This document shows positions 10,386 through 21,562 of a DNA stretch of 64,000 bases, piece by piece. Origin of the DNA: an uncultured Acidobacteriota bacterium. GTDB taxonomy: Bacteria; Acidobacteriota; Vicinamibacteria; Fen-336. Numbering within the stretch: the first letter of the stretch is position 1; every line of letters begins with the position of its first letter. Where the stretch lies: assembly GCA_963720545.1 (NCBI GenBank), contig OY970399.1, positions 544,001 to 608,000 of the forward strand, given 5' to 3'. The position numbers were made by a program, and so were the translations under genes. The notes beneath the pieces are model-generated. The model worked only from the letters and a program-made list of their open reading frames with translations. It was not told the origin of the DNA and made no database searches.

Positions 10386-11072
10386 CTGCGCGCCCGCCGC
10401 CTCGGCCGCGTGCCCTACGCCGAAGGCCTGCGCCTGCAGGCGCAGCTGGTGGCGGAGCGCCAGCAGGACCTGGTCGAAGACACCCTGCTGCTCCTCGAGC
10501 ACGATCCGGTGTTCACTCTCGGCCGCAACGCGCGCAAGGAGCACGTGCTGTTCCCCGAGGAATGGCTGCGCGGCCGCGGCTTCGAGGTGTTCGAGTCCGG
10601 GCGCGGCGGCGACGTCACCTACCATGGCCCCGGCCAGCTGGTCGGCTACCCGATCTTCAAGCTGCCGCCCGCGCGCCGCGATGTGCACCGCTACGTGCGG
10701 GCGCTCGAAGACGTGATGATCCGGACCTGCGCCGCCTACGGAATCTCGGCGGGACGCGTCGCGGGAATGACGGGCGCCTGGGTCGGGGAGCAGAAGATCG
10801 GCGCCATCGGCGTGCGCATCGCCCGCTGGGTGACCTCCCACGGTTTCGCGCTCAACGTCAACAATTCGCTCGAGCCGTTTTCCCTCATTGTTCCGTGCGG
10901 CATCGCCGGCAAGGGTGTCACGAGCCTCGGCGCGCTGCTCGGCCGTGAAGAGCCGCTCGAGCGCGTGATGGACCGCATCGAGGAAAACGTCGGCGCGTTG
11001 CTGGCGCCCCGCAACGACGCCGACGCCGAGGCGGCTACCGAGACGGCGCGGCCGGCCGCAGCGCTGCGCTGA
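10386..11072 (+). CDS. lipB: Lipoyl(octanoyl) transferase LipB
   Basis: LLEHDPVFTLG, RGGDVTYHGPGQLVGYP, KIGAIG, SHGFALN, IVPCG; start uncertain (CTG 10386 or GTG 10410). Confidence 0.92.
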   Translation: MRARRLGRVPYAEGLRLQAQLVAERQQDLVEDTLLLLEHDPVFTLGRNARKEHVLFPEEWLRGRGFEVFESGRGGDVTYHGPGQLVGYPIFKLPPARRDVHRYVRALEDVMIRTCAAYGISAGRVAGMTGAWVGEQKIGAIGVRIARWVTSHGFALNVNNSLEPFSLIVPCGIAGKGVTSLGALLGREEPLERVMDRIEENVGALLAPRNDADAEAATETARPAAALR

Positions 11073-12411
11073 TTCGCTCCGCCAGCACCGCGGCGTCGGC
11101 GATGGCGGCGTTGATCGAGACACCGCGGCAGCCGTTGCCGCCGACGAACAGGGCGCCGCGGCTCGCTGCCAGCGCCTCGATGCGCGCGACGCGCGCGGTG
11201 TGGCCGGGCGCGTACTGCGGGATCCCGGCGCGATGCCGAAAGACGCGCACGAAGCGTGGCGCCGCGGTGATGCCCATGACGCGCCGCAGGTCGGAGCGCG
11301 CCGCGACCTCCAGCTCCTGGTCGGAAAGCTCGAGCACCTGCGGCGCCGCCGCCCCGCCGAGCATGGCGCGCAGCAGCGCGTGCCCGGCTGGGGCACGGTT
11401 CGCGAAGATCGCCGAATCCCAGAGCACCCCGAGGGTTTTCAAACCCTCGCCGCGGCCGGCGAGCACGCCGAAGCCGTCGAGCGGCCGCGACAGGTCGGCG
11501 CTGCGGTAACCGAGCGCCACCACCGCCACGTCCGCGGCGCCGATCGCCAACAGCTCCCGCGCGAGCAGCGCGTCGATGCCGGCGACCACCTCTGCGGCGG
11601 CGGCAGGCGGACAGCAGAGCGCAACGGCGTCGGCGACGAGCGTCTCGCCGGTGCGCAACTGCAGTCGGAAGCCGCCTTCCGGGCGGTCGATGTCGATGCG
11701 CGCAACCGCCGCTTTGGTGCGCAGCGCCGGGCCCACGCTGCGCGCCAGGCTCGCGGCGAGCGTCGCGACACCACCGCGCAGCGAGACCAGCCGGGCCCGG
11801 TGGCGGCCGCCGCGGCGGCGCGCCAGCATGCCGCGGAACAGGCTTCCGTGCTCTTGCTCGAGGCGGCAAAGTGCCGGGAACGCGGCGCCGCTCGACAGCT
11901 CGCGCGGGTCGCCCGCGAAGACGCCCGCCGCCATCACGTCGGCGATGGCCGCCGCTGCCTCCTCGCCCAGGCGCCGTGCGAGGAACGCGTGTACGGTCTC
12001 GTCGCCGCTTTCCGCCGACGCAGTGCCCCGGGGCACGAACGGCTCGCGCAGCAGGCGCAGCTTGCCGCGCGCGCTGAGCAGCCGGCTGCGGGCAAACGAC
12101 GCGGGCCCCGTGGGCACGCGATGCAGCTCCCGGCCGCGATAGACGTAGCGCCGCCGCGCGTTGGCGTTGCTCGATTCGATCGCATCCTCGAGGCCGAGTG
12201 CCGCGATCAGCGAGCGGGTGGCCGGCTGGTTGTCGAGCCAGCCGTTGGCGCCGGCTTCGACCGTGTAGCCGTCGGCCTCCAGGGTGCACAGCTTGCCGCC
12301 CGCGCCTTGCGCCGCTTCGAGCACCACCGCCGTGATGCCGCCCTGCGCCAGGAGGCCGTGCGCGAGCGCCAGCCCGGAGACGCCGCCGCCGACGATCGCG
12401 ACCCGTTTCAC
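11035..12411 (-). CDS. hemY: HemY-type protoporphyrinogen oxidase
   Basis: VAIVGGGVSGL FAD motif, EAGAN, GVFAGDP, GFGVL, IPQY..GH; last gene of the hem operon. Confidence 0.9.
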   Translation of the reverse strand: MKRVAIVGGGVSGLALAHGLLAQGGITAVVLEAAQGAGGKLCTLEADGYTVEAGANGWLDNQPATRSLIAALGLEDAIESSNANARRRYVYRGRELHRVPTGPASFARSRLLSARGKLRLLREPFVPRGTASAESGDETVHAFLARRLGEEAAAAIADVMAAGVFAGDPRELSSGAAFPALCRLEQEHGSLFRGMLARRRGGRHRARLVSLRGGVATLAASLARSVGPALRTKAAVARIDIDRPEGGFRLQLRTGETLVADAVALCCPPAAAAEVVAGIDALLARELLAIGAADVAVVALGYRSADLSRPLDGFGVLAGRGEGLKTLGVLWDSAIFANRAPAGHALLRAMLGGAAAPQVLELSDQELEVAARSDLRRVMGITAAPRFVRVFRHRAGIPQYAPGHTARVARIEALAASRGALFVGGNGCRGVSINAAIADAAVLAERISAALRPAAPSR

Positions 12412-12422
12412 TGGTGGGCGGC

Positions 12423-13814
12423 CTACACCGTCCGCGAAAAACCGGTGCGTGCCGAGGCGCCGCGGCGATACCGGTCGAACACCATGCAGACGTTGCGCAC
12501 CAGCAGGCGCCCGCGTTCGGTCACCGCCACCTCGGTGGCGTCGGGCGTCACCGCAACGATGCCGTCTTCGCTGAGCGCGCCGCGCAGCTCGGCCAGCTCG
12601 GCGGCGAAGTAGTCGCGGAACGACACGCCGAAGCGGCTCTCGACCGCGCGCGCCGCGACGCGAAAGTTGCACATCAGTTCCGCGATCACATGCCGCCGCA
12701 GCCGGTCGTCGGCGTCGAGGCGAAAGCCGCGCTCGATCGGGAAGCGGCCGCGGTCGAGCGCTTCGTAGTACTCGCTCAGCTTCTTAACGTTCTGCGCGAA
12801 CGCCCCGGAGACGTCGCCGATGGCGGAAACACCGCAGCCGACCATGTCCGGCGCGGGCCGCGTGGTGTAGCCCATGAAGTTACGGTGCAGGATGCCGGCG
12901 CGCGCGGCGATCGCGAGTTCGTCCTCCGGCACCGCGAAGTGGTCCATGCCGATCGCGGCATAGCCGGCGCCGAGGAAGCGTTCGCGCGCCATGAGGAAGA
13001 GCGCCATCTTCTCCTCGGCCGAGGGCAGCGCCTCTGGCGACAGCGTGCGCTGATGGCCCTTCATCCACGGCACGTGCGCGTAGGAATAGATCGCGGTGCG
13101 CTCCGGCCGGTTGCGCAACACGCTGTCGAGCGTGCGCGCGAAGCCGTCGCGGGTCTGCCGCGGCAGCCCGTAGATCAGGTCGACGTTGGTCGAGCGGAAA
13201 CCCGCGGCGCGCGCCTGCGCCAGCAGCGTCCAGGTTTCTTCCTCCGACTGGATGCGGTTGACCGCCTGCTGCACGGGCGCGTCGAAGTCCTGCACGCCCA
13301 GCGAAAGGCGGTTGAAGCCGAGGCGCCGCAGCGTATCGATGTGCTCGGCCGTGGTGACGCGCGGGTCCACCTCGATGGCCGCTTCGCCCTGCGGGTCGAG
13401 GTCGAAGTGCTGCGCGACCACGTCCTGCAGCTCCTGCATCTGCGCGGGAGCCAGGTACGTGGGGGTGCCGCCGCCCCAGTGATACTGCACCACGCGGCGG
13501 CGGCCGCCGAGTGCGCCGGCAAGCATCGCCAGCTCGCGGTGCAGGTAGCCGAGGTACTTTTCGGCCACCGAGCGGTTCTTGGTGATGATCACCATGCAGC
13601 CGCAGAAAGTGCAGCGCTCTTCGCAGAAGGGCAGGTGGAGGTAGAGCGACAGCGGCTGATCCGGTGCTCGCGCCGCGGCGGCCAGCTGCTCGCGGTATGC
13701 GGGCTCGTCGAACGCGCTGCTGAACTCGAGCGCGGTCGGATACGACGTGTAGCGCGGACCGGGCCGGTCGTAGGCCCGCAGCAGCTCCAGCGGCACGGCC
13801 GCGGCGGCGCTCAA
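12423..13814 (-). CDS. hemN: Oxygen-independent coproporphyrinogen III oxidase (radical SAM)
   Basis: GPRYTSYP, YLHLPFCEERCTFCGC, GGGTP, MDHFA, RNFMGY. Confidence 0.95.
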   Translation of the reverse strand: MSAAAAVPLELLRAYDRPGPRYTSYPTALEFSSAFDEPAYREQLAAAARAPDQPLSLYLHLPFCEERCTFCGCMVIITKNRSVAEKYLGYLHRELAMLAGALGGRRRVVQYHWGGGTPTYLAPAQMQELQDVVAQHFDLDPQGEAAIEVDPRVTTAEHIDTLRRLGFNRLSLGVQDFDAPVQQAVNRIQSEEETWTLLAQARAAGFRSTNVDLIYGLPRQTRDGFARTLDSVLRNRPERTAIYSYAHVPWMKGHQRTLSPEALPSAEEKMALFLMARERFLGAGYAAIGMDHFAVPEDELAIAARAGILHRNFMGYTTRPAPDMVGCGVSAIGDVSGAFAQNVKKLSEYYEALDRGRFPIERGFRLDADDRLRRHVIAELMCNFRVAARAVESRFGVSFRDYFAAELAELRGALSEDGIVAVTPDATEVAVTERGRLLVRNVCMVFDRYRRGASARTGFSRTV

Positions 13815-14887
13815 GCGCTCACCCGCTCGCTTTGCTCGCGCACCGCGTCCACCAGCACCTGCGCGTGATCGGGCGGCGTCATCGGCAGGATGCCGTGGCC
13901 GAGGTTGAAGATGTGTCCGCCGCCGGCGCGCGCGGCGGCCGCCAGCACGGCGGCGATGCGCTCACGGATCGCCTGCGGCGGCGCCAGCAGCACGGCGGGA
14001 TCGAGGTTCCCCTGCAGCGCCGGGCCGCGCCCGAGCTTCTGCCGCGCGTCGTCGAGGTCCACGCGCCAGTCCACCCCCACCACGTCGGCGCGCACGTCGC
14101 GCACCCGCGACAGCCGCCCGGCCGAGCCTTCGCCGGCATAGTAGATCCGCGGCGGGCTGGCACCTTGTGGACTGGCACTCGCCACGGCGTCCATCACCTG
14201 GCGCGCATAGGGAATCGCGAACGTCTCGTCGTCGTCCTTCGACAGGATGCCGGCCCAGCTGTCGAACAGCATCACCGCCTGCGCACCCGCCTCGGCCTGC
14301 GCCGCCAGCGACAGGGCCGCCGTCGCCGCGCAGATGGCGAGCAGGCGGTGCGCGGTGGCCGGGTCGTTGTAGAGGAGCGACTTCAGCGCAGCGAAGTTCT
14401 TCGTGCCGCCACCCTCGACGAGGTAGGCCGCGACGGTGAACGGCGCGCCGGCAAAGCCGATGAGCGGTACCGTTGGCGGCAGCGCGCCGCGCACCAGCCG
14501 CAGCGTCTCCAGCAGCCAGGGTGTTGCTTCGGCGGCGGGTGCGACGCGCAGCGTATCGACGTCGGCCGGCGTGCGGATGGTGCGCGCCAGCTTCGGTCCG
14601 GGGGCAAAAGCCACGTCAACCCCCATGCCCGGCAGGCCGATGAGAATGTCGGAGAAGACGATCGCCGCGTCCACGCCGAAGCGGCGGATCGGCTGCAAGG
14701 TCAGTTCGCAGGCGATCTCCGGGGTCTTGCAGCTCGTCAGGAAATCGTAGCGCTCACGCACCGCGCGGTACTCCGGCAGGTAGCGCCCGGCCTGGCGCAT
14801 CATCCACACCGGCGTGCGCGGTACGTCCTCGCCGCGGCACGCGCGCAGGAAGAGCGCGTCTTCGTGCTGGCTGCGCGGCTCACTCAT
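13811..14887 (-). CDS. hemE: Uroporphyrinogen decarboxylase
   Basis: PVWMMRQAGRYLPEY, FSDIL, IGFAGAPFT, QGNLDP, FNLGHG. Confidence 0.96.
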   Translation of the reverse strand: MSEPRSQHEDALFLRACRGEDVPRTPVWMMRQAGRYLPEYRAVRERYDFLTSCKTPEIACELTLQPIRRFGVDAAIVFSDILIGLPGMGVDVAFAPGPKLARTIRTPADVDTLRVAPAAEATPWLLETLRLVRGALPPTVPLIGFAGAPFTVAAYLVEGGGTKNFAALKSLLYNDPATAHRLLAICAATAALSLAAQAEAGAQAVMLFDSWAGILSKDDDETFAIPYARQVMDAVASASPQGASPPRIYYAGEGSAGRLSRVRDVRADVVGVDWRVDLDDARQKLGRGPALQGNLDPAVLLAPPQAIRERIAAVLAAAARAGGGHIFNLGHGILPMTPPDHAQVLVDAVREQSERVSA

Positions 14888-16184
14888 GGGCAATGCGCAT
14901 CGCCTCGGCGGCCGCCGCGACGGTTGCGTCGATCTGGGCATCGGTGTGGGCGATGGAGATGAAGTTGGCCTCGAACTGCGACGGGGCGAGGAAAAAGCCG
15001 CGGTCGAGCATCACGTGGAAGAAACGGCCATAGCGCGTGGCGTCGCTGGCCTTCGCCGAGGGCCAGTCGACGACCGCGTCTGCGGTGAAGAACAGCGTCC
15101 ACATGGACGCGGCGCGCTGGATGCGGCACGGCACGCCCTGTGCGGCGATGGCCCCCGCGATGCCCTGCTCGAGCCGCGCGCCGAGGGCTTCGAGCCGCGT
15201 GTAGAGATCGGGCATCGCGGCAATCGTGCGCAGCGTCGCGAGCCCTGCCGCCATGCCGAGCGGGTTGCCCGACAGCGTACCCGCCTGGTACACGGGCCCT
15301 TCCGGGGCCACCTGGCTCATCAGGTCGCGGCGCCCGCCGTAGGCTGCGACCGGCAGGCCGCCGCCGACGATCTTGCCGAGGGTCGTGAGGTCGGGCCGCA
15401 CCGAGAACCGCTCCTGCGCGCCACCGCGGCTCACGCGGAAGCCGGTCATCACCTCGTCGAAGATGAGGAGCGCGCCGTGCTCGTCGCACAGCGCGCGCAG
15501 ACCGCCCAGGAAGCCCGCGGCCGGCACGACCACGCCCATGTTGCCGACCACCGGTTCGACGATGAGCGCGGCAACCTTGCCGGGATTGGCGGCAAACAGC
15601 GCGGACACATCGGCGAGGTCGTTGAAGCGGGCGTTCAGTGTATCGCGCGCCGTGGCCGGCGTGACCCCGGGGCTGTCCGGCGTGCCGAAGGTCGCGGCAC
15701 CCGAGCCGGCGCGGATCAGGAACGAGTCGGCATGGCCGTGGTAGCAGCCCTCGAACTTGATGACACGATCCCGGCCGGTAGCCGCACGCGCCAGCCGGAT
15801 CGCGGACATGGTGGCCTCGGTGCCCGAGTTCACCATGCGCACCTTCTCGATCGCCGGCATGAGGCTCGTCAGCAGCTCGCCCATCTCCACTTCGAGCCGG
15901 CTCGGCGCGCCGAACGAGATGCCGGCCCGGGCTTGCTCACGCACCGCCGCAACCACCGCCGGGTGCGAGTGGCCCAGGATCATCGGACCCCACGAACCGA
16001 TGTAGTCGACGAGCGCCCGGCCGTCCTCGTCGAAGACCAGCGAGCCTGCGGCGCGGGCGATGAACCGCGGGCTGCCGCCGACTGCGCGGTAGGCGCGCAC
16101 CGGCGAATTGACGCCGCCCGGCAGCACCTTCCCCGCCCGCTCGAAGAGCAACTCGCTGGCGGTCGTTTCGCTCGCTTGCGTCAT
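14880..16184 (-). CDS. hemL: Glutamate-1-semialdehyde 2,1-aminomutase
   Basis: PGGVNSPVRA, NSGTEA, FEGCYHGH, FDEVMTGFR, GKIVGGG. Confidence 0.96.
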   Translation of the reverse strand: MTQASETTASELLFERAGKVLPGGVNSPVRAYRAVGGSPRFIARAAGSLVFDEDGRALVDYIGSWGPMILGHSHPAVVAAVREQARAGISFGAPSRLEVEMGELLTSLMPAIEKVRMVNSGTEATMSAIRLARAATGRDRVIKFEGCYHGHADSFLIRAGSGAATFGTPDSPGVTPATARDTLNARFNDLADVSALFAANPGKVAALIVEPVVGNMGVVVPAAGFLGGLRALCDEHGALLIFDEVMTGFRVSRGGAQERFSVRPDLTTLGKIVGGGLPVAAYGGRRDLMSQVAPEGPVYQAGTLSGNPLGMAAGLATLRTIAAMPDLYTRLEALGARLEQGIAGAIAAQGVPCRIQRAASMWTLFFTADAVVDWPSAKASDATRYGRFFHVMLDRGFFLAPSQFEANFISIAHTDAQIDATVAAAAEAMRIAHE

Positions 16185-16187
16185 GGT

Positions 16188-17171
16188 TCACGCCAGCAGG
16201 CGCGCAGCCTCCTTCGCGAAGTAGGTCAGGATCACGTCGGCGCCCGCGCGGCGGATCGCGATCAGCGACTCCAGCATGGCGCGTTCGCCGTCGATCCAGC
16301 CGTTGGCGGCCGCGGCGCGCAGCATCGCGTACTCGCCCGAGACGTGGTAGGCGCAGACCGGCGCCGCGAAGCGCTGCTTCACTCGCCAGATGACGTCGAG
16401 ATACGGGAGCGCCGGCTTCACCATGACGACGTCGGCGCCCTCTTCGAGATCGAGCGCCACCTCGCGCAGCGCTTCGTCGGAATTGGCGGGATCCATCTGG
16501 TAGCCGCGGCGGTCGCCGAAGGACGGCGTCGAGCCGGCGGCTTCACGAAACGGCCCGTAGAAAGCCGATGCGTACTTCGCCGCGTACGACACCAGCACCA
16601 CGTCGCTGCGTCCGGCGGCGTCGAGAGCGCGACGGATGACGCCGACGCGGCCGTCCATCATGTCGGAGGGCGCAACCACGTCGGCGCCGGCCTCCGCGTA
16701 GACGAGCGCTGCCTGCGCCAGCAGCGGCAGCGTCGCGTCGTTGTCCACCTCGACGCCGCGCGCATCCTCGTGCAGCGGCCCGCAGTGGCCGTGGTCGGTG
16801 TACTCGCACAGGCACACGTCGGCCCACAGCGACATCTGCGGCAACTCAACCCGCAGGGCGCGCAGCGCCGCCGGCACCGGCCCGTTCGGATCCCACGCCG
16901 CCGTCCCGTGCGCGTTCTTCGCGTCAGGGATGCCGAAGAGGATGACGCCCGGCACGCCGAGCGAGTGCAGCTCACGGCATTCCCCTAGCAGCAGGTCGAC
17001 GCTGAGGCGGTCGCAACCGGGCATCGCGCCGATGGGCACGCGCACGTTCTCGCCGCCGCACACGAACAGCGGCGCGATCAGGTCGCTCGGCGCGAGCCGC
17101 GTCTGCGCGAACATCCGGCGCAGCGTCTCGGTGCGCCGCAGGCGCCGCGGCCGCGACAGCGGATAGCTCAA
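16188..17171 (-). CDS. hemB: Porphobilinogen synthase (Zn-binding type)
   Basis: RPRRLR, DVCLCEYTDHGHCG, PSDMMDGR, FYGPFR, MVKPA; TTG start overlapping the hemD stop. Confidence 0.96.
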   Translation of the reverse strand: MSYPLSRPRRLRRTETLRRMFAQTRLAPSDLIAPLFVCGGENVRVPIGAMPGCDRLSVDLLLGECRELHSLGVPGVILFGIPDAKNAHGTAAWDPNGPVPAALRALRVELPQMSLWADVCLCEYTDHGHCGPLHEDARGVEVDNDATLPLLAQAALVYAEAGADVVAPSDMMDGRVGVIRRALDAAGRSDVVLVSYAAKYASAFYGPFREAAGSTPSFGDRRGYQMDPANSDEALREVALDLEEGADVVMVKPALPYLDVIWRVKQRFAAPVCAYHVSGEYAMLRAAAANGWIDGERAMLESLIAIRRAGADVILTYFAKEAARLLA

Positions 17172-17959
17172 TGGAGCCGCACCCTGCGACCTTCGATTGC
17201 GGCCATCACCGCTTCCGCCAGGCCGTCCACCGTGCGGCAGCGCGGTTCGACGTCGGCGGGCGCGCCCAGCGACGCGAGCGCTGCCGACGTCGTCGGCCCG
17301 ACACTGGCCACCACGGTCCTCTTCACAAGCACCCGAAGCGAAGCATCGTCGAACGCCGCGGCCAGTGAAAAGGCGGCGGACGGCGCAAGGAACGTCACCG
17401 CGGCGATCTCGCCGGCATCGAGCAGCGCGCGGAAGCGCCCTGTCTCCGCGGGCTCGGTGGCGCTGGTCGTGTAGGCAACCGGGTCGCAGACCGTGAAGCC
17501 CATCGCCTCGAGGCGCAATCGGAAGTCGGGAGCGGCGCGCTCCGAGCGCGGCCACAGCACCCGGCCGCGACCAACTGCGTCGAGAGCCGCCGCGAGCCCT
17601 GCCGCGCCCGCGTCCGGTGCCGCCACCACCACGTCCGGCGCGATGTCCTCGGCAAGCAGCGCTTCGGCAGTCGCCGGCCCGGCCGCCGCCACCAACGGGC
17701 GCTCGGCACATCGCGCCAGCAGCATCGTGAAGCCGCGGCCGCACGCAGCCGCAACCGCGCGCCGGCTCGTGAACGCGACGCTGCGGAACGTCGCGAGGTC
17801 GCGAAGCGCCGCGTCGAGCGGGGCGAAGTCGCCGGGCTCGCCAATGGCGGTGGCGGCAAGGGGAAACGGCGCCGCGCCGCGCCGCGCCAGCGCTTGCCAG
17901 AGCGGGCCGCCCGCGCCCTCGTCGCGGGTGATGACGACGATGGGCCGTGCCGCGTTCAT
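17168..17959 (-). CDS. hemD: Uroporphyrinogen-III synthase
   Basis: VITR, FTSRRAV, GPATA, AYTT, SVGPTT; position between hemC and hemB. Confidence 0.85.
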   Translation of the reverse strand: MNAARPIVVITRDEGAGGPLWQALARRGAAPFPLAATAIGEPGDFAPLDAALRDLATFRSVAFTSRRAVAAACGRGFTMLLARCAERPLVAAAGPATAEALLAEDIAPDVVVAAPDAGAAGLAAALDAVGRGRVLWPRSERAAPDFRLRLEAMGFTVCDPVAYTTSATEPAETGRFRALLDAGEIAAVTFLAPSAAFSLAAAFDDASLRVLVKRTVVASVGPTTSAALASLGAPADVEPRCRTVDGLAEAVMAAIEGRRVRLH

Positions 17960-18933
17960 CGTTCCACCGCCGCGGCCAGCGCAGGATTGGCGGCGTGCGC
18001 CGCGCGCACTTCAGAAAGGATGGCGCTGGCACCCTCGGCGAGCGCGCGGCCTCCAAGGACATCGCCGAACGCAACCGCAGCCGCCTCGCTCGTGACCTCC
18101 TCGACAGCACGCTGCCGCACCACTTGCTGTCCATTGACGCTTGCGACCATCGCATCGAGCTGCAGGCGGCCGTCCTGCCAGGTGCCCAGAGCGCCCACCG
18201 GCGCCTGACAGCCGCCTTCGACGCGATGGAGGAACGCCCGCTCGGCAGCCACCGCCAGGCGGGTCGGCCCATGGTCGAGCGCCGCGGCCAGCGCGCATGC
18301 GCGTGCGTCGCCGCTGCGCACCTGCACGGCAAGCGCCCCCTGTCCCGGCGCCGGCACGAAGTCACGCGCGTCGAGCAGCTCGCTCACACGCCGTGCGAGC
18401 CCCAGGCGCGCGAGCCCGGCCTGCGCCAGGATCACGGCGTCGCAGTCGCCGCGGTCGAGTTTCGCGAGGCGGGTCGGCACGTTGCCGCGCAGGTCGCACA
18501 CGCGCAGGTCGGGGCGGGCCGCGAGCAGCTGCGCGCGGCGGCGCAGCGACGACGTGCCGATGCGCGCGCCGCGGCCGAGCTGCCGCAACCCGCCGCCGGC
18601 GCGCGACACCAACGCGTCGCGCGGATCCTCGCGTTCCAGGATCGCGGCAAGCTGCAGGCCGGCGCCCGGCGCCGTCTGCAGGTCCTTGAGGCTGTGGACG
18701 GCGATGTCGACGCGCCCTTCTAACAGTGCATCCTCGATCTCGCGCGTGAAGACCCCCTGGGTGCCGATGGCGGCGAACGCCGCGGCGGCGGCCTGGTCAC
18801 CGGCGGTCCGGACGACGACCACCTCGATGCCGAGCCCAGGCGTCGCCTCCAGGAGCCGTTCGCGGACATGCCCGGCCTGCCACAAGGCCAGGGCGCTGCC
18901 GCGCGTGCCGAGCCGCAGCGCTGCGTCAGCCAA
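17956..18933 (-). CDS. hemC: Hydroxymethylbilane synthase (porphobilinogen deaminase)
   Basis: LGTRGSALALWQ, AVHSLKD, GTSSLRR, RGNVPTR, PAPGQG, GGCQAP. Confidence 0.96.
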   Translation of the reverse strand: MADAALRLGTRGSALALWQAGHVRERLLEATPGLGIEVVVVRTAGDQAAAAAFAAIGTQGVFTREIEDALLEGRVDIAVHSLKDLQTAPGAGLQLAAILEREDPRDALVSRAGGGLRQLGRGARIGTSSLRRRAQLLAARPDLRVCDLRGNVPTRLAKLDRGDCDAVILAQAGLARLGLARRVSELLDARDFVPAPGQGALAVQVRSGDARACALAAALDHGPTRLAVAAERAFLHRVEGGCQAPVGALGTWQDGRLQLDAMVASVNGQQVVRQRAVEEVTSEAAAVAFGDVLGGRALAEGASAILSEVRAAHAANPALAAAVER

Positions 18934-20200
18934 GGATGTCCTCGTGCTCGGGCGTGAGCCCGAACAACTCGTGTGCCGCGCGCAGCCGCGCGCTGCCCTC
19001 GGCGGTGCGCGGGTCGATGCCGCGCAACTGGCTGGCCGGTGCCTGCAGCAGTTTGTTGACGAGCGCACGCGTGAGCCGCTCGATGTCGCGGCGATGCTCG
19101 GCCGGGAAGCCCGCGAGGTGGCGCTCGACCTCGGCTTCGCGGATCGACTCGAAGCGTGCGCGCAGCCGGCGCTCGAACGGCGGCCGGCGGAAGCTCTCGT
19201 CCCACGCGACGAAGCGGCCGCACTCCTGCGCGACGATGTTCTCGACCTTGCGCACTTCCGCCTCGCGCAGGCTCTGGTTGCGGGCCACCACCTCACCGAC
19301 GTCGTCGATCGACACCAGCGTGACGCCGACGCCGTTAACCGCGGCGCCCGGTTCGACCGCGCGCGGCACCGAGACGTCGATCACCAACAGCGGCCGGCCC
19401 GCGCGACGCGACACGCAGCGATCGAGCGCGGCGCGGGTGAGCAGCGGCGCTTCGGTGCGCACGGCCACCAGCACCACGTCAACGTCGTCGAGGACCGTGT
19501 CGATGTCCTCGAGCCCGACGGCCCGGCCGCGCACTTCCCTGGCCAGGGCCTGCGCGCGCGCCGCGGTGCGGTTCGCGACATAGAGCGCCGCGGCACGCTT
19601 GTCGGCCGCGTGCAGCGCCAGCAGCCTGCCGGTCTCGCCCGCGCCGATCACCAGCACCTTGCGGCTCGCGAACCCGGCCGTGCCGCGCGCGGCGAGCGAC
19701 ACCGCGGCCGACGCCACCGACAAGGCGCCCCTGGCAAGCGCCGTTTCCGCGCGTCCGCGCCGTCCTGCGCCGAGCGCCGCGGCCACCAGCCGCTCGAGCC
19801 GCGGACCCGAGGCGCCCGCCGCACGCGACAGCGCCAGCGCGTCCTTCACCTGGCCGAGGATCTCGGTTTCGCCGAGGATCCGCGACTCGAGGCCGCAGGC
19901 GACTCGCAACAGGTGGCGGCAGGCCGCCTCATCCGAGGCACGCCGCGCCGCGGCTGCCAGGGCCTGCTCACGCTCGGCGCCGAGCGTGCGCGCGACGAAG
20001 CTGTCAAAGGCGCCGCGGTCCGGCGCGAATGCGTACACTTCCGCGCGGTTGCAGGTGCTGAGCACCAGCGCTTCGCGCCAGACGCCGGCCGCGATGCCCT
20101 CGCGCAGCAGCTCCTGCGCCGCGGCGGCATCACGCGCCGCGTGTTCGCGCAGTTCCACCGCCGCTACACGGTGATCGACGCCAAGAAGTTGAAGATCCAT
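18926..20200 (-). CDS. hemA: Glutamyl-tRNA reductase
   Basis: LSTCNRAE, GLES.ILGE..ILGQVK, IGAGETG, IDVSVPR. Confidence 0.93.
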   Translation of the reverse strand: MDLQLLGVDHRVAAVELREHAARDAAAAQELLREGIAAGVWREALVLSTCNRAEVYAFAPDRGAFDSFVARTLGAEREQALAAAARRASDEAACRHLLRVACGLESRILGETEILGQVKDALALSRAAGASGPRLERLVAAALGAGRRGRAETALARGALSVASAAVSLAARGTAGFASRKVLVIGAGETGRLLALHAADKRAAALYVANRTAARAQALAREVRGRAVGLEDIDTVLDDVDVVLVAVRTEAPLLTRAALDRCVSRRAGRPLLVIDVSVPRAVEPGAAVNGVGVTLVSIDDVGEVVARNQSLREAEVRKVENIVAQECGRFVAWDESFRRPPFERRLRARFESIREAEVERHLAGFPAEHRRDIERLTRALVNKLLQAPASQLRGIDPRTAEGSARLRAAHELFGLTPEHEDILG

Positions 20201-20328
20201 CCCTCTCGTACCCGTTCCTGCACGCGCGACCTCGTGGACGGTGGGCGCGTGTTCCAGGGCAAGCGCCCCGGAGTCCTTGCTGAGTTGACCTGCGAAGGAC
20301 CGTTAGAACGGCGGGGGGCGGGAGAAGA
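20201..20328 (-). promoter_or_regulatory. Structured hemA leader: three hairpins closed by pairing of the upstream ORF's last codons with the hemA initiation region
   Basis: Hairpins 20273-20300, 20256-20269 and 20221-20251; CCGUUCU (20305-20311) pairs with GGAACGG (20212-20218); UCUUCUC (20322-20328) pairs with GAGAGGG (20201-20207). Folded by eye. Confidence 0.55.
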
Positions 20329-20788
20329 GCGACGGCGTGAACGCGGCGCGTCTTGCCGAAATGGCGGAGACGACGCCCACGCGCGCATGTCGAAGCCGCG
20401 GCACCAGAAGCTGGGCGCGGCCAAGAAGCGCCGTGACCAGCAGGATGGTGGCGACGATCGGCGCGAGCGAGCCGGGAAGCAGGAAAATGCCGTCGGCGTT
20501 GGCAACAGAATCGACAGGTGGCGCCGCCACGCCAAGATGCAGCGCCACCACCAGTACGCCGAGCACGACCAGCTTGCGCGTGGAGAACGGACGGCCGCGG
20601 CGCCACAGTTCGCGCAGCGCGGCGACGACGGCAAGGGCCGCTCCCCAGCGCACGAAATCGAGCGCGCCGAAGTCGGCCCGGGCAATGCGCGAAAGAAGCA
20701 GCCAGACGTGGAACAGGACCAGCGGCACGCCGGATGCGGCGCCCGCGATCCACAACAACTTCCGGCCAGTCAAGGTCTTGCCAGTCAC
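20303..20788 (-). CDS. Four-helix membrane protein with C-terminal RPPP motif; candidate arrest/leader protein of the hem operon
   Basis: 161 aa, four hydrophobic segments, His27 and His84, ends LFSRPPPF-stop; fills the gap between the GAF gene and hemA. Confidence 0.7.
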   Translation of the reverse strand: MTGKTLTGRKLLWIAGAASGVPLVLFHVWLLLSRIARADFGALDFVRWGAALAVVAALRELWRRGRPFSTRKLVVLGVLVVALHLGVAAPPVDSVANADGIFLLPGSLAPIVATILLVTALLGRAQLLVPRLRHARVGVVSAISARRAAFTPSLFSRPPPF

Positions 20789-20800
20789 CTGCTGCCGACC

Positions 20801-21562
20801 TTACGACGCCGGAGTGCCCCGGTCAAGGCTGATCTGCCCCGGCTGGCGGCGCAGCTCGTCCACCAGCCGCGCGTTGCGCAGGGCCACCACCAGGAACTCG
20901 GCGATGGTTTCGCCGGTGGCCACGTCGTCGAGGCCGAAATCGTCGATCTGGTCGCTCTGCACGTCGATCGCCCCCACCACCTCGCCGCCGTCCATCAGCG
21001 GCACCACCATCTCGGAGCGCGTGTCGAGGACGTCGCGGCGATAGTCGGGGTCGCGGCGCACGTCGCTCACCACCTGCGGCGCGCGCTTGCGCACCGCGCG
21101 GCCGATGATGCCGGCAGCCGGGGCCTGCGCGCGTCCCGCCGACTGGCGGCTCACGCCCTCGCGTCCGGCCCACCGCCCGATCAGGACGCCATCGGTATCG
21201 AGCACGGTGACCGCGACCGAGTTGTAGTTCATCTTTTCCTGGATGGCGCGCGCCGCCTCCTGCATGAGCGCATCGGATTCGAGGATGGACGCGACCCGGT
21301 GGATGACCGAGTTGAGCATGGCCAGGTGGTCGGCGCGGCGCTGGTGGAGGCGCGACTGCGCCCGCAGCGCGGACACTTCCTCGCTGAGTTCACCCAGGCG
21401 CGCGAGCGCCAACCCGTCGGGCCCGCCGCCGGCCCTGTGCGTCGCCGGCCTGCGAACCGCCGGTGCGGCCCGCCTCGCCTTCTTCAGCGGGTTCCTCGTG
21501 GTCGTCTTCTTCTTCACCGCTTTTTTCTTCACCGCGGTCTTCCTGCTGGCGCGCGACTTCAT
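20801..21562 (-). CDS. Stand-alone GAF domain protein with Lys-rich N-terminus
   Basis: GIIGRAV...VSDVRRDPDY...TRSEMVVPL...VVGAIDVQSD...ALRNARL; ATGA overlap with ubiE. Confidence 0.85.
   Translation of the reverse strand: MKSRASRKTAVKKKAVKKKTTTRNPLKKARRAAPAVRRPATHRAGGGPDGLALARLGELSEEVSALRAQSRLHQRRADHLAMLNSVIHRVASILESDALMQEAARAIQEKMNYNSVAVTVLDTDGVLIGRWAGREGVSRQSAGRAQAPAAGIIGRAVRKRAPQVVSDVRRDPDYRRDVLDTRSEMVVPLMDGGEVVGAIDVQSDQIDDFGLDDVATGETIAEFLVVALRNARLVDELRRQPGQISLDRGTPAS

Follow-up and report, generated by a model that had tools for sequence, protein, structure and literature searches.

A candidate arrest-peptide leader ahead of hemA and of probable heme-uptake genes in Acidobacteriota

Bacterial control of hemA is exerted mainly by transcription factors and proteolysis. 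The hemA gene considered here lies in a 64,000-nt stretch of DNA (the window, to which all coordinates refer) from an uncultured Acidobacteriota bacterium (Vicinamibacteria; Fen-336; assembly GCA_963720545.1, OY970399.1, positions 544,001-608,000), and it is preceded on the same strand by a small ORF that ends in RPPPF. Does this ORF act as a leader whose translation governs that of hemA? A first-pass annotation had suggested that it does, with the RPPP codons pairing with the hemA start, closing a junction of three hairpins, and a stalled ribosome opening it again.

The hemA locus and the leader family

The window contains the following features around the ORF.

20303-20788, minus strand: leader ORF of 161 aa with four hydrophobic helices, ending in SLFSRPPPF; start codon GTG; no Pfam family
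18926-20200, minus strand: hemA, glutamyl-tRNA reductase (Pfam GlutR_N, Shikimate_DH and GlutR_dimer), heading the putatively regulated cluster
11035-18934, minus strand: hemC, hemD, hemB, hemL, hemE, hemN and the protoporphyrinogen oxidase gene, packed tightly after hemA
20798-20826, minus strand: candidate sigma-70 promoter, TTGACC-17 nt-TAAGGT, ending 9 nt 5' of the leader GTG

The spacer between leader and hemA is 102 nt long, and the ferrochelatase gene lies outside the hem cluster, at another place in the genome. Directly upstream of the leader, behind ubiE, is a GAF-domain gene with a Lys-rich N-terminus (20801-21561, minus strand); its stop codon and the candidate -10 box overlap. This box matches at 3/6 positions, and a stricter promoter scan did not list the leader promoter. 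Among the family loci described below, a sigma-70-like pattern was found upstream of the leader in 21/79, compared with 0/79 windows inside the leader and 0/81 spacers. Since the pattern precedes leaders and is absent from spacers, leader and hemA are probably cotranscribed, on a transcript that would be near-leaderless at the leader. Neither promoter scan lists an internal hemA promoter, and no intrinsic terminator pattern was found in the spacer. One RNA-library contig of low depth spans 20314-20591 only and is informative about neither transcript ends nor expression. Four runs over 20050-20900 contained four substitutions, none of them within 20180-20345. Seven other leaders (L022, L023, L030, L037, L045, L055 and L093) carry an ATG 6-8 nt past the -10 box, which suggests that these are translated leaderless. 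Two strong Rho RNA-binding domain matches (G000:C1 at 2933546 and 786079) and a weak one were found in this genome.

A profile search with the leader was positive in 75/401 genomes of the class and 18/401 of the phylum. After duplicates were merged, the 96 hits gave 81 distinct loci from 29 genera; L009, a weak match, was dropped. Homologous proteins in databases include some labelled Vicinamibacteria. All 81 leaders carry R[PAG]PP near the C-terminus, 1-14 residues before the stop (59 RPPP, 20 RAPP and 2 RGPP), as do 72 of 74 database proteins of the family at their ends. The motif is no artefact of the search, since a profile built on residues 1-109 alone, which lacks it, recovers 80/81 loci. 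Internal R[PAG]PP is scarce: 1690 crude gene calls of this genome contain 1942 Pro-Pro pairs, of which 7 belong to such a motif. Every locus has a co-oriented downstream gene, behind a non-coupling spacer of 46-232 nt. The distribution is patchy, and 28 of 30 hemA loci of relatives have no leader within 1.5 kb. Two genomes hold two copies each, one of the synthesis-operon type and one of the uptake type (L003 and L010 in G016, L027 and L047 in G386). Short tandem repeats with 6-7 nt units occur in the leader-receptor spacers of L040, L059, L067 and L085. Unrelated ORFs of 109-154 codons in L223 and in L124, L133 and L136 reach LFSRPPP, then a stop within a few codons and then a start; they are probably other RPPP leaders, and the one in L223 has a CXXC-like motif.

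The terminal motif and two conserved histidines of the leader map to these codons.

20309-20320, minus strand: R-P-P-P arrest-motif codons; putative P-site 20312-20314 and A-site 20309-20311, placed by analogy
20708-20710, minus strand: His27 codon, first helix; candidate heme ligand; His in 78/81 loci
20537-20539, minus strand: His84 codon, end of the third helix; candidate heme ligand; His in 81/81 loci

According to the available text of two papers, the third motif residue occupies the P-site when RAPP-type peptides stall (PMC10987492), and ApdP A132P, which has RPPP, retains arrest (PMC12992588). Besides the histidines, Trp48 (80/81 loci) and Arg47 (76/81) are conserved. The separation between His27 and His84 is kept at 56-59 residues, and His84 stands 77-80 residues (interquartile range) ahead of the P-site Pro. 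From the end of the last hydrophobic helix to this Pro there are about 35-40 residues across the family, roughly one tunnel length, and the linker ahead of the motif keeps its length while its sequence varies. The charge distribution suggests that both histidines lie toward the outer face of the membrane. Cysteine is absent from the leader of this window and from the family consensus, and 0/100 family members match Pfam DUF2946 at E ≤ 0.1.

The predicted leader model is of moderate quality (pLDDT 73), and Foldseek returned no match to it at E ≤ 0.001. No fold is assigned: the best result of a wide search, a designed helix bundle (Z 7.0, rmsd 4.4 over 113 residues), falls in the generic range. 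Atlas searches placed the leader (mostly Acidobacteriota) and a 242-aa membrane protein described below in unnamed clusters only; DUF6412, at 0.82, is the closest cluster with a name and serves just as a lead. By its sequence features, the leader belongs with the RAPP class and is neither a Sec/YidC monitor nor a DUF2946 protein, and we consider it very probably an arrest leader that controls the next gene.

Downstream genes and a probable link to heme

What, then, would such a leader control? The next gene encodes a TonB receptor in 48 of the 81 loci and the 242-aa membrane protein in 14; it is ccsA-hemA in 10 and hemA in 9. Neither secA, secDF, yidC nor any other sec gene is next in any of them (0/81). 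The long loci of the ccsA-hemA class carry ferrochelatase and oxidase genes further downstream. For the receptors, the best NCBIfam models were heme/hemoglobin receptors in 6/6 tested and in a fusion, at scores far below the cut-offs, and the best solved-structure match was the colicin I receptor, followed by PhuR. A motif resembling FRAP/NPNL was discarded as a diagnostic, its pattern being present in only 3 of the longer receptor sequences.

The 242-aa protein has no Pfam or NCBIfam match. Where a gene of similar size behind the receptor was compared, in 5 longer receptor loci, it encodes this protein in 4/5, and in another locus the two are fused. Instances are L044:1708-2436 (minus strand), L104:5331-6056 and L106:5639-6343, with the receptor fusion in L096. 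We regard the protein as a candidate inner-membrane heme transporter.

The genomes with uptake-type loci often seem to be without heme synthesis: 42/62 have no GlutR_N match and 40/62 no ferrochelatase match, compared with 89/401 without GlutR_N in the class sample as a baseline; as the genomes are assemblies, an absent match is not a proven gene loss. Within family f11, any GlutR_N match occurs in 14/29 genomes with a leader-receptor locus vs 37/38 others (35/36 after leaving out the unpublished genomes G244 and G383). Genus g27 (e.g. G038-G055), with a GlutR_N match in only 2/18 genomes, has the leader ahead of the 242-aa protein without an adjacent receptor; its spacer, about 50 nt, folds up as a single long hairpin that carries the RAPP codons close to its tip. 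Nine genomes (G041, G101, G103, G254, G256, G260, G266, G310 and G388) have only a divergent GlutR_N match (E ~1e-25 to 1e-28), and most of them also have divergent ferrochelatase-like matches (E ~1e-21 to 1e-28), the two in many cases lying some 8 kb apart; these pairs are possibly a separate tetrapyrrole cluster.

Predicted pairing of the leader end with the downstream start

We then turn to the RNA between leader and hemA, in which the following elements are predicted, with pair probabilities (P) taken from five fold windows, three shorter and two longer.

20315-20335, minus strand: 5' strand of the closing helix (anti-SD), Pro-Ser-Leu-Phe-Ser-Arg-Pro codons; the register shifts with the fold window
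20197-20218, minus strand: hemA initiation region, 3' strand of the closing helix; SD GAGAGGG at 20201-20207, AUG at 20198-20200
20273-20300, minus strand: spacer hairpin 1; core pairs P 0.97-1.0, two outer pairs 0.35-0.71
20253-20272, minus strand: spacer hairpin 2; 8 bp, vs 5 bp in the first-pass annotation; P 0.78-1.0
20221-20251, minus strand: spacer hairpin 3; P 0.96-1.0 in free folds
20182-20208, minus strand: weaker local hairpin of the SD with hemA codons 5-7, forming once the 5' strand is blocked

The segments named in the first-pass annotation all lie where it had placed them on the minus strand. The two closing helices it had drawn, helix A (20322-20328 with the SD) and helix B (20305-20311 with 20212-20218), are each complementary at 7/7 positions when G-U pairs are allowed, and its three spacer hairpins proved robust, mostly with P 0.96-1.0 in the five windows. 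The closing helix itself was borne out as a pairing of the leader 3' end with the hemA start, but not in that register, since enforcing both A and B costs 6.7 kcal/mol over the best fold. For helix A, P is 0-0.03 in the shorter windows, whereas in the longer two, six of the seven pairs have 0.56-0.8. For helix B it is at most 0.31, since 20308-20312 favor a small local hairpin formed with 20299-20303. The best 166-nt fold pairs 20331-20335 with 20197-20201 (over the AUG), 20325-20329 with 20203-20207 and 20319-20322 with 20211-20214, and in short folds the SD and AUG are covered by the Pro-Ser-Leu-Phe codons. The RPPP codons, which had been described as complementary to the hemA start, reach only bases 5' of the SD, while the SD itself is paired by the Ser-Leu-Phe-Ser codons before them.

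How much of this pairing is specific to the locus? Against shuffled controls the spacer alone stands out, with 6/1000 dinucleotide shuffles folding as well, but the whole region, with z -1.43 and 14/200 shuffles as good, is no more stable than chance. The start region has 13.2 of 19 bases paired to the upstream coding end, a value reached by 8/250 ordinary same-strand gene pairs of this genome, and also by 57/200 synonymous recodings and 73/200 shuffles of the leader 3' end. The pairing here is tied to the peptide, since the C/U-rich Leu-Phe-Ser-Arg-Pro codons produce it under most synonymous choices; the idea that the RNA lends support independent of the protein motif thus fails at this locus. 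Its P-site Pro codon is CCG, not CCU. No Rfam covariance model matched 20180-20345 at E ≤ 5. Relatives close enough for spacer covariation were not obtained: a metagenome protein scan confirmed 0/596 pattern matches, and a DNA-pattern scan (119 matches) gave no family member among the matches listed.

A stalled ribosome would have a footprint of about 20299-20329, which overlies the 5' strands of the closing helix. Blocking the footprint lowers the predicted cost of opening hemA -16..+3 from 16.0 to 11.4 kcal/mol, and to 9.4 with the upstream part also blocked, a drop of 6.6 kcal/mol matched by 5/250 ordinary gene pairs. Relative to ordinary genes, the cost moves from the 85th to about the 40th-58th percentile and not to zero. 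The secM-secA-like arrangement proposed at first fits in its geometry and in this falling cost, but the start would be only partly exposed, because the SD would then pair with hemA codons 5-7 instead. With a terminating ribosome the predicted drop is the same as with a stalled one (11.5 vs 11.4 kcal/mol). Moreover, if an unrelated hairpin is blocked in the longest window, the cost falls just as far (9.4 vs 9.4).

The family as a whole gives a clearer picture. The median number of start-region bases paired with the leader end is 9.5, compared with 5.4 for synonymous recodings, 5.2 with shuffled spacers and 1.0 for ordinary gene pairs (n=250). The native sequence beats its own recodings in 65/81 loci (25/29 genera), and its pairing exceeds that with shuffled spacers in 65/81 loci and 25/29 genera as well; the loci are related by descent, so P values are overstated, and the downstream gene starts were picked by eye. 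Pairing is maximal at the R-x-P-P codons and near zero in the spacer. The hemA-adjacent loci, the class of this window, are the weakest, with only 5/9 beating their recodings, and in a cross-locus test of the receptor class the own start region did no better than those of other loci (25/48). Blocking lowers the opening cost by at least 2 kcal/mol in 41/81 loci with one footprint and in 52/81 with the footprint and upstream part, vs 39/250 ordinary pairs; 19/81 loci show no drop with one footprint.

A silent preference is seen at the P-site Pro codon, which is CCU in 36/81 loci (17/29 genera) and so gives an anti-SD CCUCC. As controls, the first Pro of Pro-Pro is CCU in 72/1942 cases (3.7%) in the genome, 12/84 (14%) in neighbouring genes and 2/21 inside leaders. 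The helices that hide the SD are specific to lineages: two receptor-linked genera-level sets, one of 6 loci and one of 5, have CUCCGC/GCGGAG; ten genomes of a single genus have GUCUCGCG/CGCGAGAC (pairing in 91% of cells, two-sided changes in 2/8 pairs); and this locus has CUCUU with GAGAG. Covariation is thin, with few compensatory changes, as the pairs are mostly invariant within each lineage. The junction of three hairpins belongs to this locus only, and what recurs is the anti-SD/SD closing helix. A conserved three-hairpin RNA family was accordingly rejected: 10/19 hemA/ccsA loci were aligned, at 47% column identity, and had no common layout. SD occlusion is supported at the family level and not by the fold of this locus alone; the predicted anti-SD stem over the stall footprint has backing across the family, and at this locus it is no better than recoded controls. 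We regard SD occlusion as probably a main output of the leader.

Rival readings, known systems and a proposed mechanism

Could the fold have no regulatory role at all, arising by chance from GC-rich Pro-coding sequence of an ordinary membrane protein next to a G-rich SD? The modest whole-region z of -1.43, the failure of this locus to beat its own recodings and the lack of conservation of the junction all speak in that direction. Against it stand the pairing in excess of all three controls (recoded, spacer-shuffled and ordinary-gene) across the family, the CCU bias at a silent site, and a terminal motif that stays invariant on a linker of fixed length and variable sequence, so that chance is a very improbable account. 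An arrest leader acting mainly on transcription is a different matter: the stalled ribosome would shield a C-rich Rho site, the hairpins would serve as pauses and SD pairing would be secondary. Around the motif, here as in all four classes, there is an excess of C over G of 0.17-0.25 per base, Rho is encoded in the genome, CruR-bfrG operates through Rho (as far as the available text of PMC9426467 goes), and a single switch could serve a nine-kilobase operon. The C excess, however, is largely a consequence of the Pro codons, and the predicted folds show a structured region; the spacer lacks an intrinsic terminator pattern, and neither the silent CCU bias nor the lineage-specific anti-SD helices would be expected from a Rho site alone. 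Rho as the main route is thus unlikely, though the two outputs can coexist.

The signal is a separate issue. An arrest leader with SD occlusion might respond instead to iron or another metal through its histidines, to Sec/YidC insertion, or to EF-P or proline supply. Streptomyces RAPP leaders with four helices and histidines have been proposed as metal sensors (PMC12992588, in its available text), EF-P and the proline-rich end are involved in CutF arrest (bioRxiv 2025.02.05.636593, likewise), and the substrate of the receptors here is only putative, given the sub-cut-off scores and the colicin I receptor match. On the other hand, the targets that could be identified all belong to heme synthesis or cytochrome c assembly, or are receptors of genomes mostly without hemA; sec or yidC is the next gene in none of the 81 loci; and 22/81 leaders have RAPP or RGPP, motifs termed refractory to EF-P in the EMBO J text seen. 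Some other signal is therefore improbable, if less so than the route through Rho, and heme is the likely one, a call we make slightly less firmly than that on SD occlusion.

According to the available text of PMC10987492 and PMC12992588, SecM-secA, ApdA, ApdP and uDF_RQH-secDF2 share with the present leader a small localized protein with terminal R-x-P-P and a gene behind it on the same strand; in these systems a stem, of the kind predicted here, hides the SD of that gene and overlaps the stall site. Their targets are sec or yidC, whereas those here are heme supply genes; the leader here has four helices and two conserved histidines, and its predicted stem encloses 100 nt of spacer hairpins. 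CruR of Bordetella pertussis, as described in the accessible part of PMC9426467, is similar in being a ligand-binding leader (putatively so here) with a terminal RAPP-class motif and a long spacer, upstream of a TonB receptor, where ligand lifts the arrest and turns supply off, as it may here. CruR has a signal peptide, a CXXC for copper and DUF2946, and uses Rho; the present leader has neither Cys nor DUF2946, and is predicted to form an anti-SD helix. In Rhodobacter capsulatus, CutF-cutO likewise has a proline-rich terminal stall that opens an SD-hiding stem-loop (bioRxiv 2022.11.11.516240 and 2025.02.05.636593, in the portions available). CutF, however, is an exported DUF2946 protein in which copper induces the stall and turns the gene on, whereas the ligand here would release it.

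The motif here is mostly RPPP, whereas the EMBO J survey, in the text seen, extracted RAPP and RGPP; the RPPP class escapes surveys restricted to those two. The 10 text-searchable supplement files of PMC12992588 do not mention hemA, heme, glutamyl-tRNA reductase, cytochrome c biogenesis or RPPP. A search of the openly accessible literature found no paper in which an arrest peptide controls the synthesis or uptake of heme.

The reading that we favor, by a modest degree of belief, is that the leader is a RAPP-class arrest peptide controlling translation of heme operons, with heme releasing the stall through His27 and His84. The ribosome would stall with Pro159 in the P-site once all four helices have left the tunnel. 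Sitting over the anti-SD strand, it would make the hemA start cheaper to open, and hemA and the genes behind it would be translated. When heme is plentiful, it would bind the nascent membrane bundle at His27 and His84, and the folding or pulling of the bundle would release the stall and let the ribosome terminate. The closing helix, held at this locus by the three spacer hairpins, would then re-form and hemA initiation would fall. Since a terminating ribosome also opens the closing helix, briefly, the output would be set by dwell time. The specific proposal that the nascent four-helix protein binds heme on the ribosome, and thereby releases the RPPP stall that holds the hemA or importer start open, is put forward tentatively.

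The leader most likely turns heme supply on by means of a self-pausing ribosome, in a group of soil bacteria and ahead of synthesis or probable uptake genes. The analysis also names a probable heme importer pair, the receptor and the unannotated 242-aa protein, in lineages seemingly without heme synthesis, and the family offers a compact test case for a membrane-bound cofactor pulling on a stalled ribosome. If the proposal is true, this would be a heme-sensing translational feedback switch made from an arrest peptide, which one phylum would use twice over, to control synthesis in prototrophs and uptake in likely heme auxotrophs.
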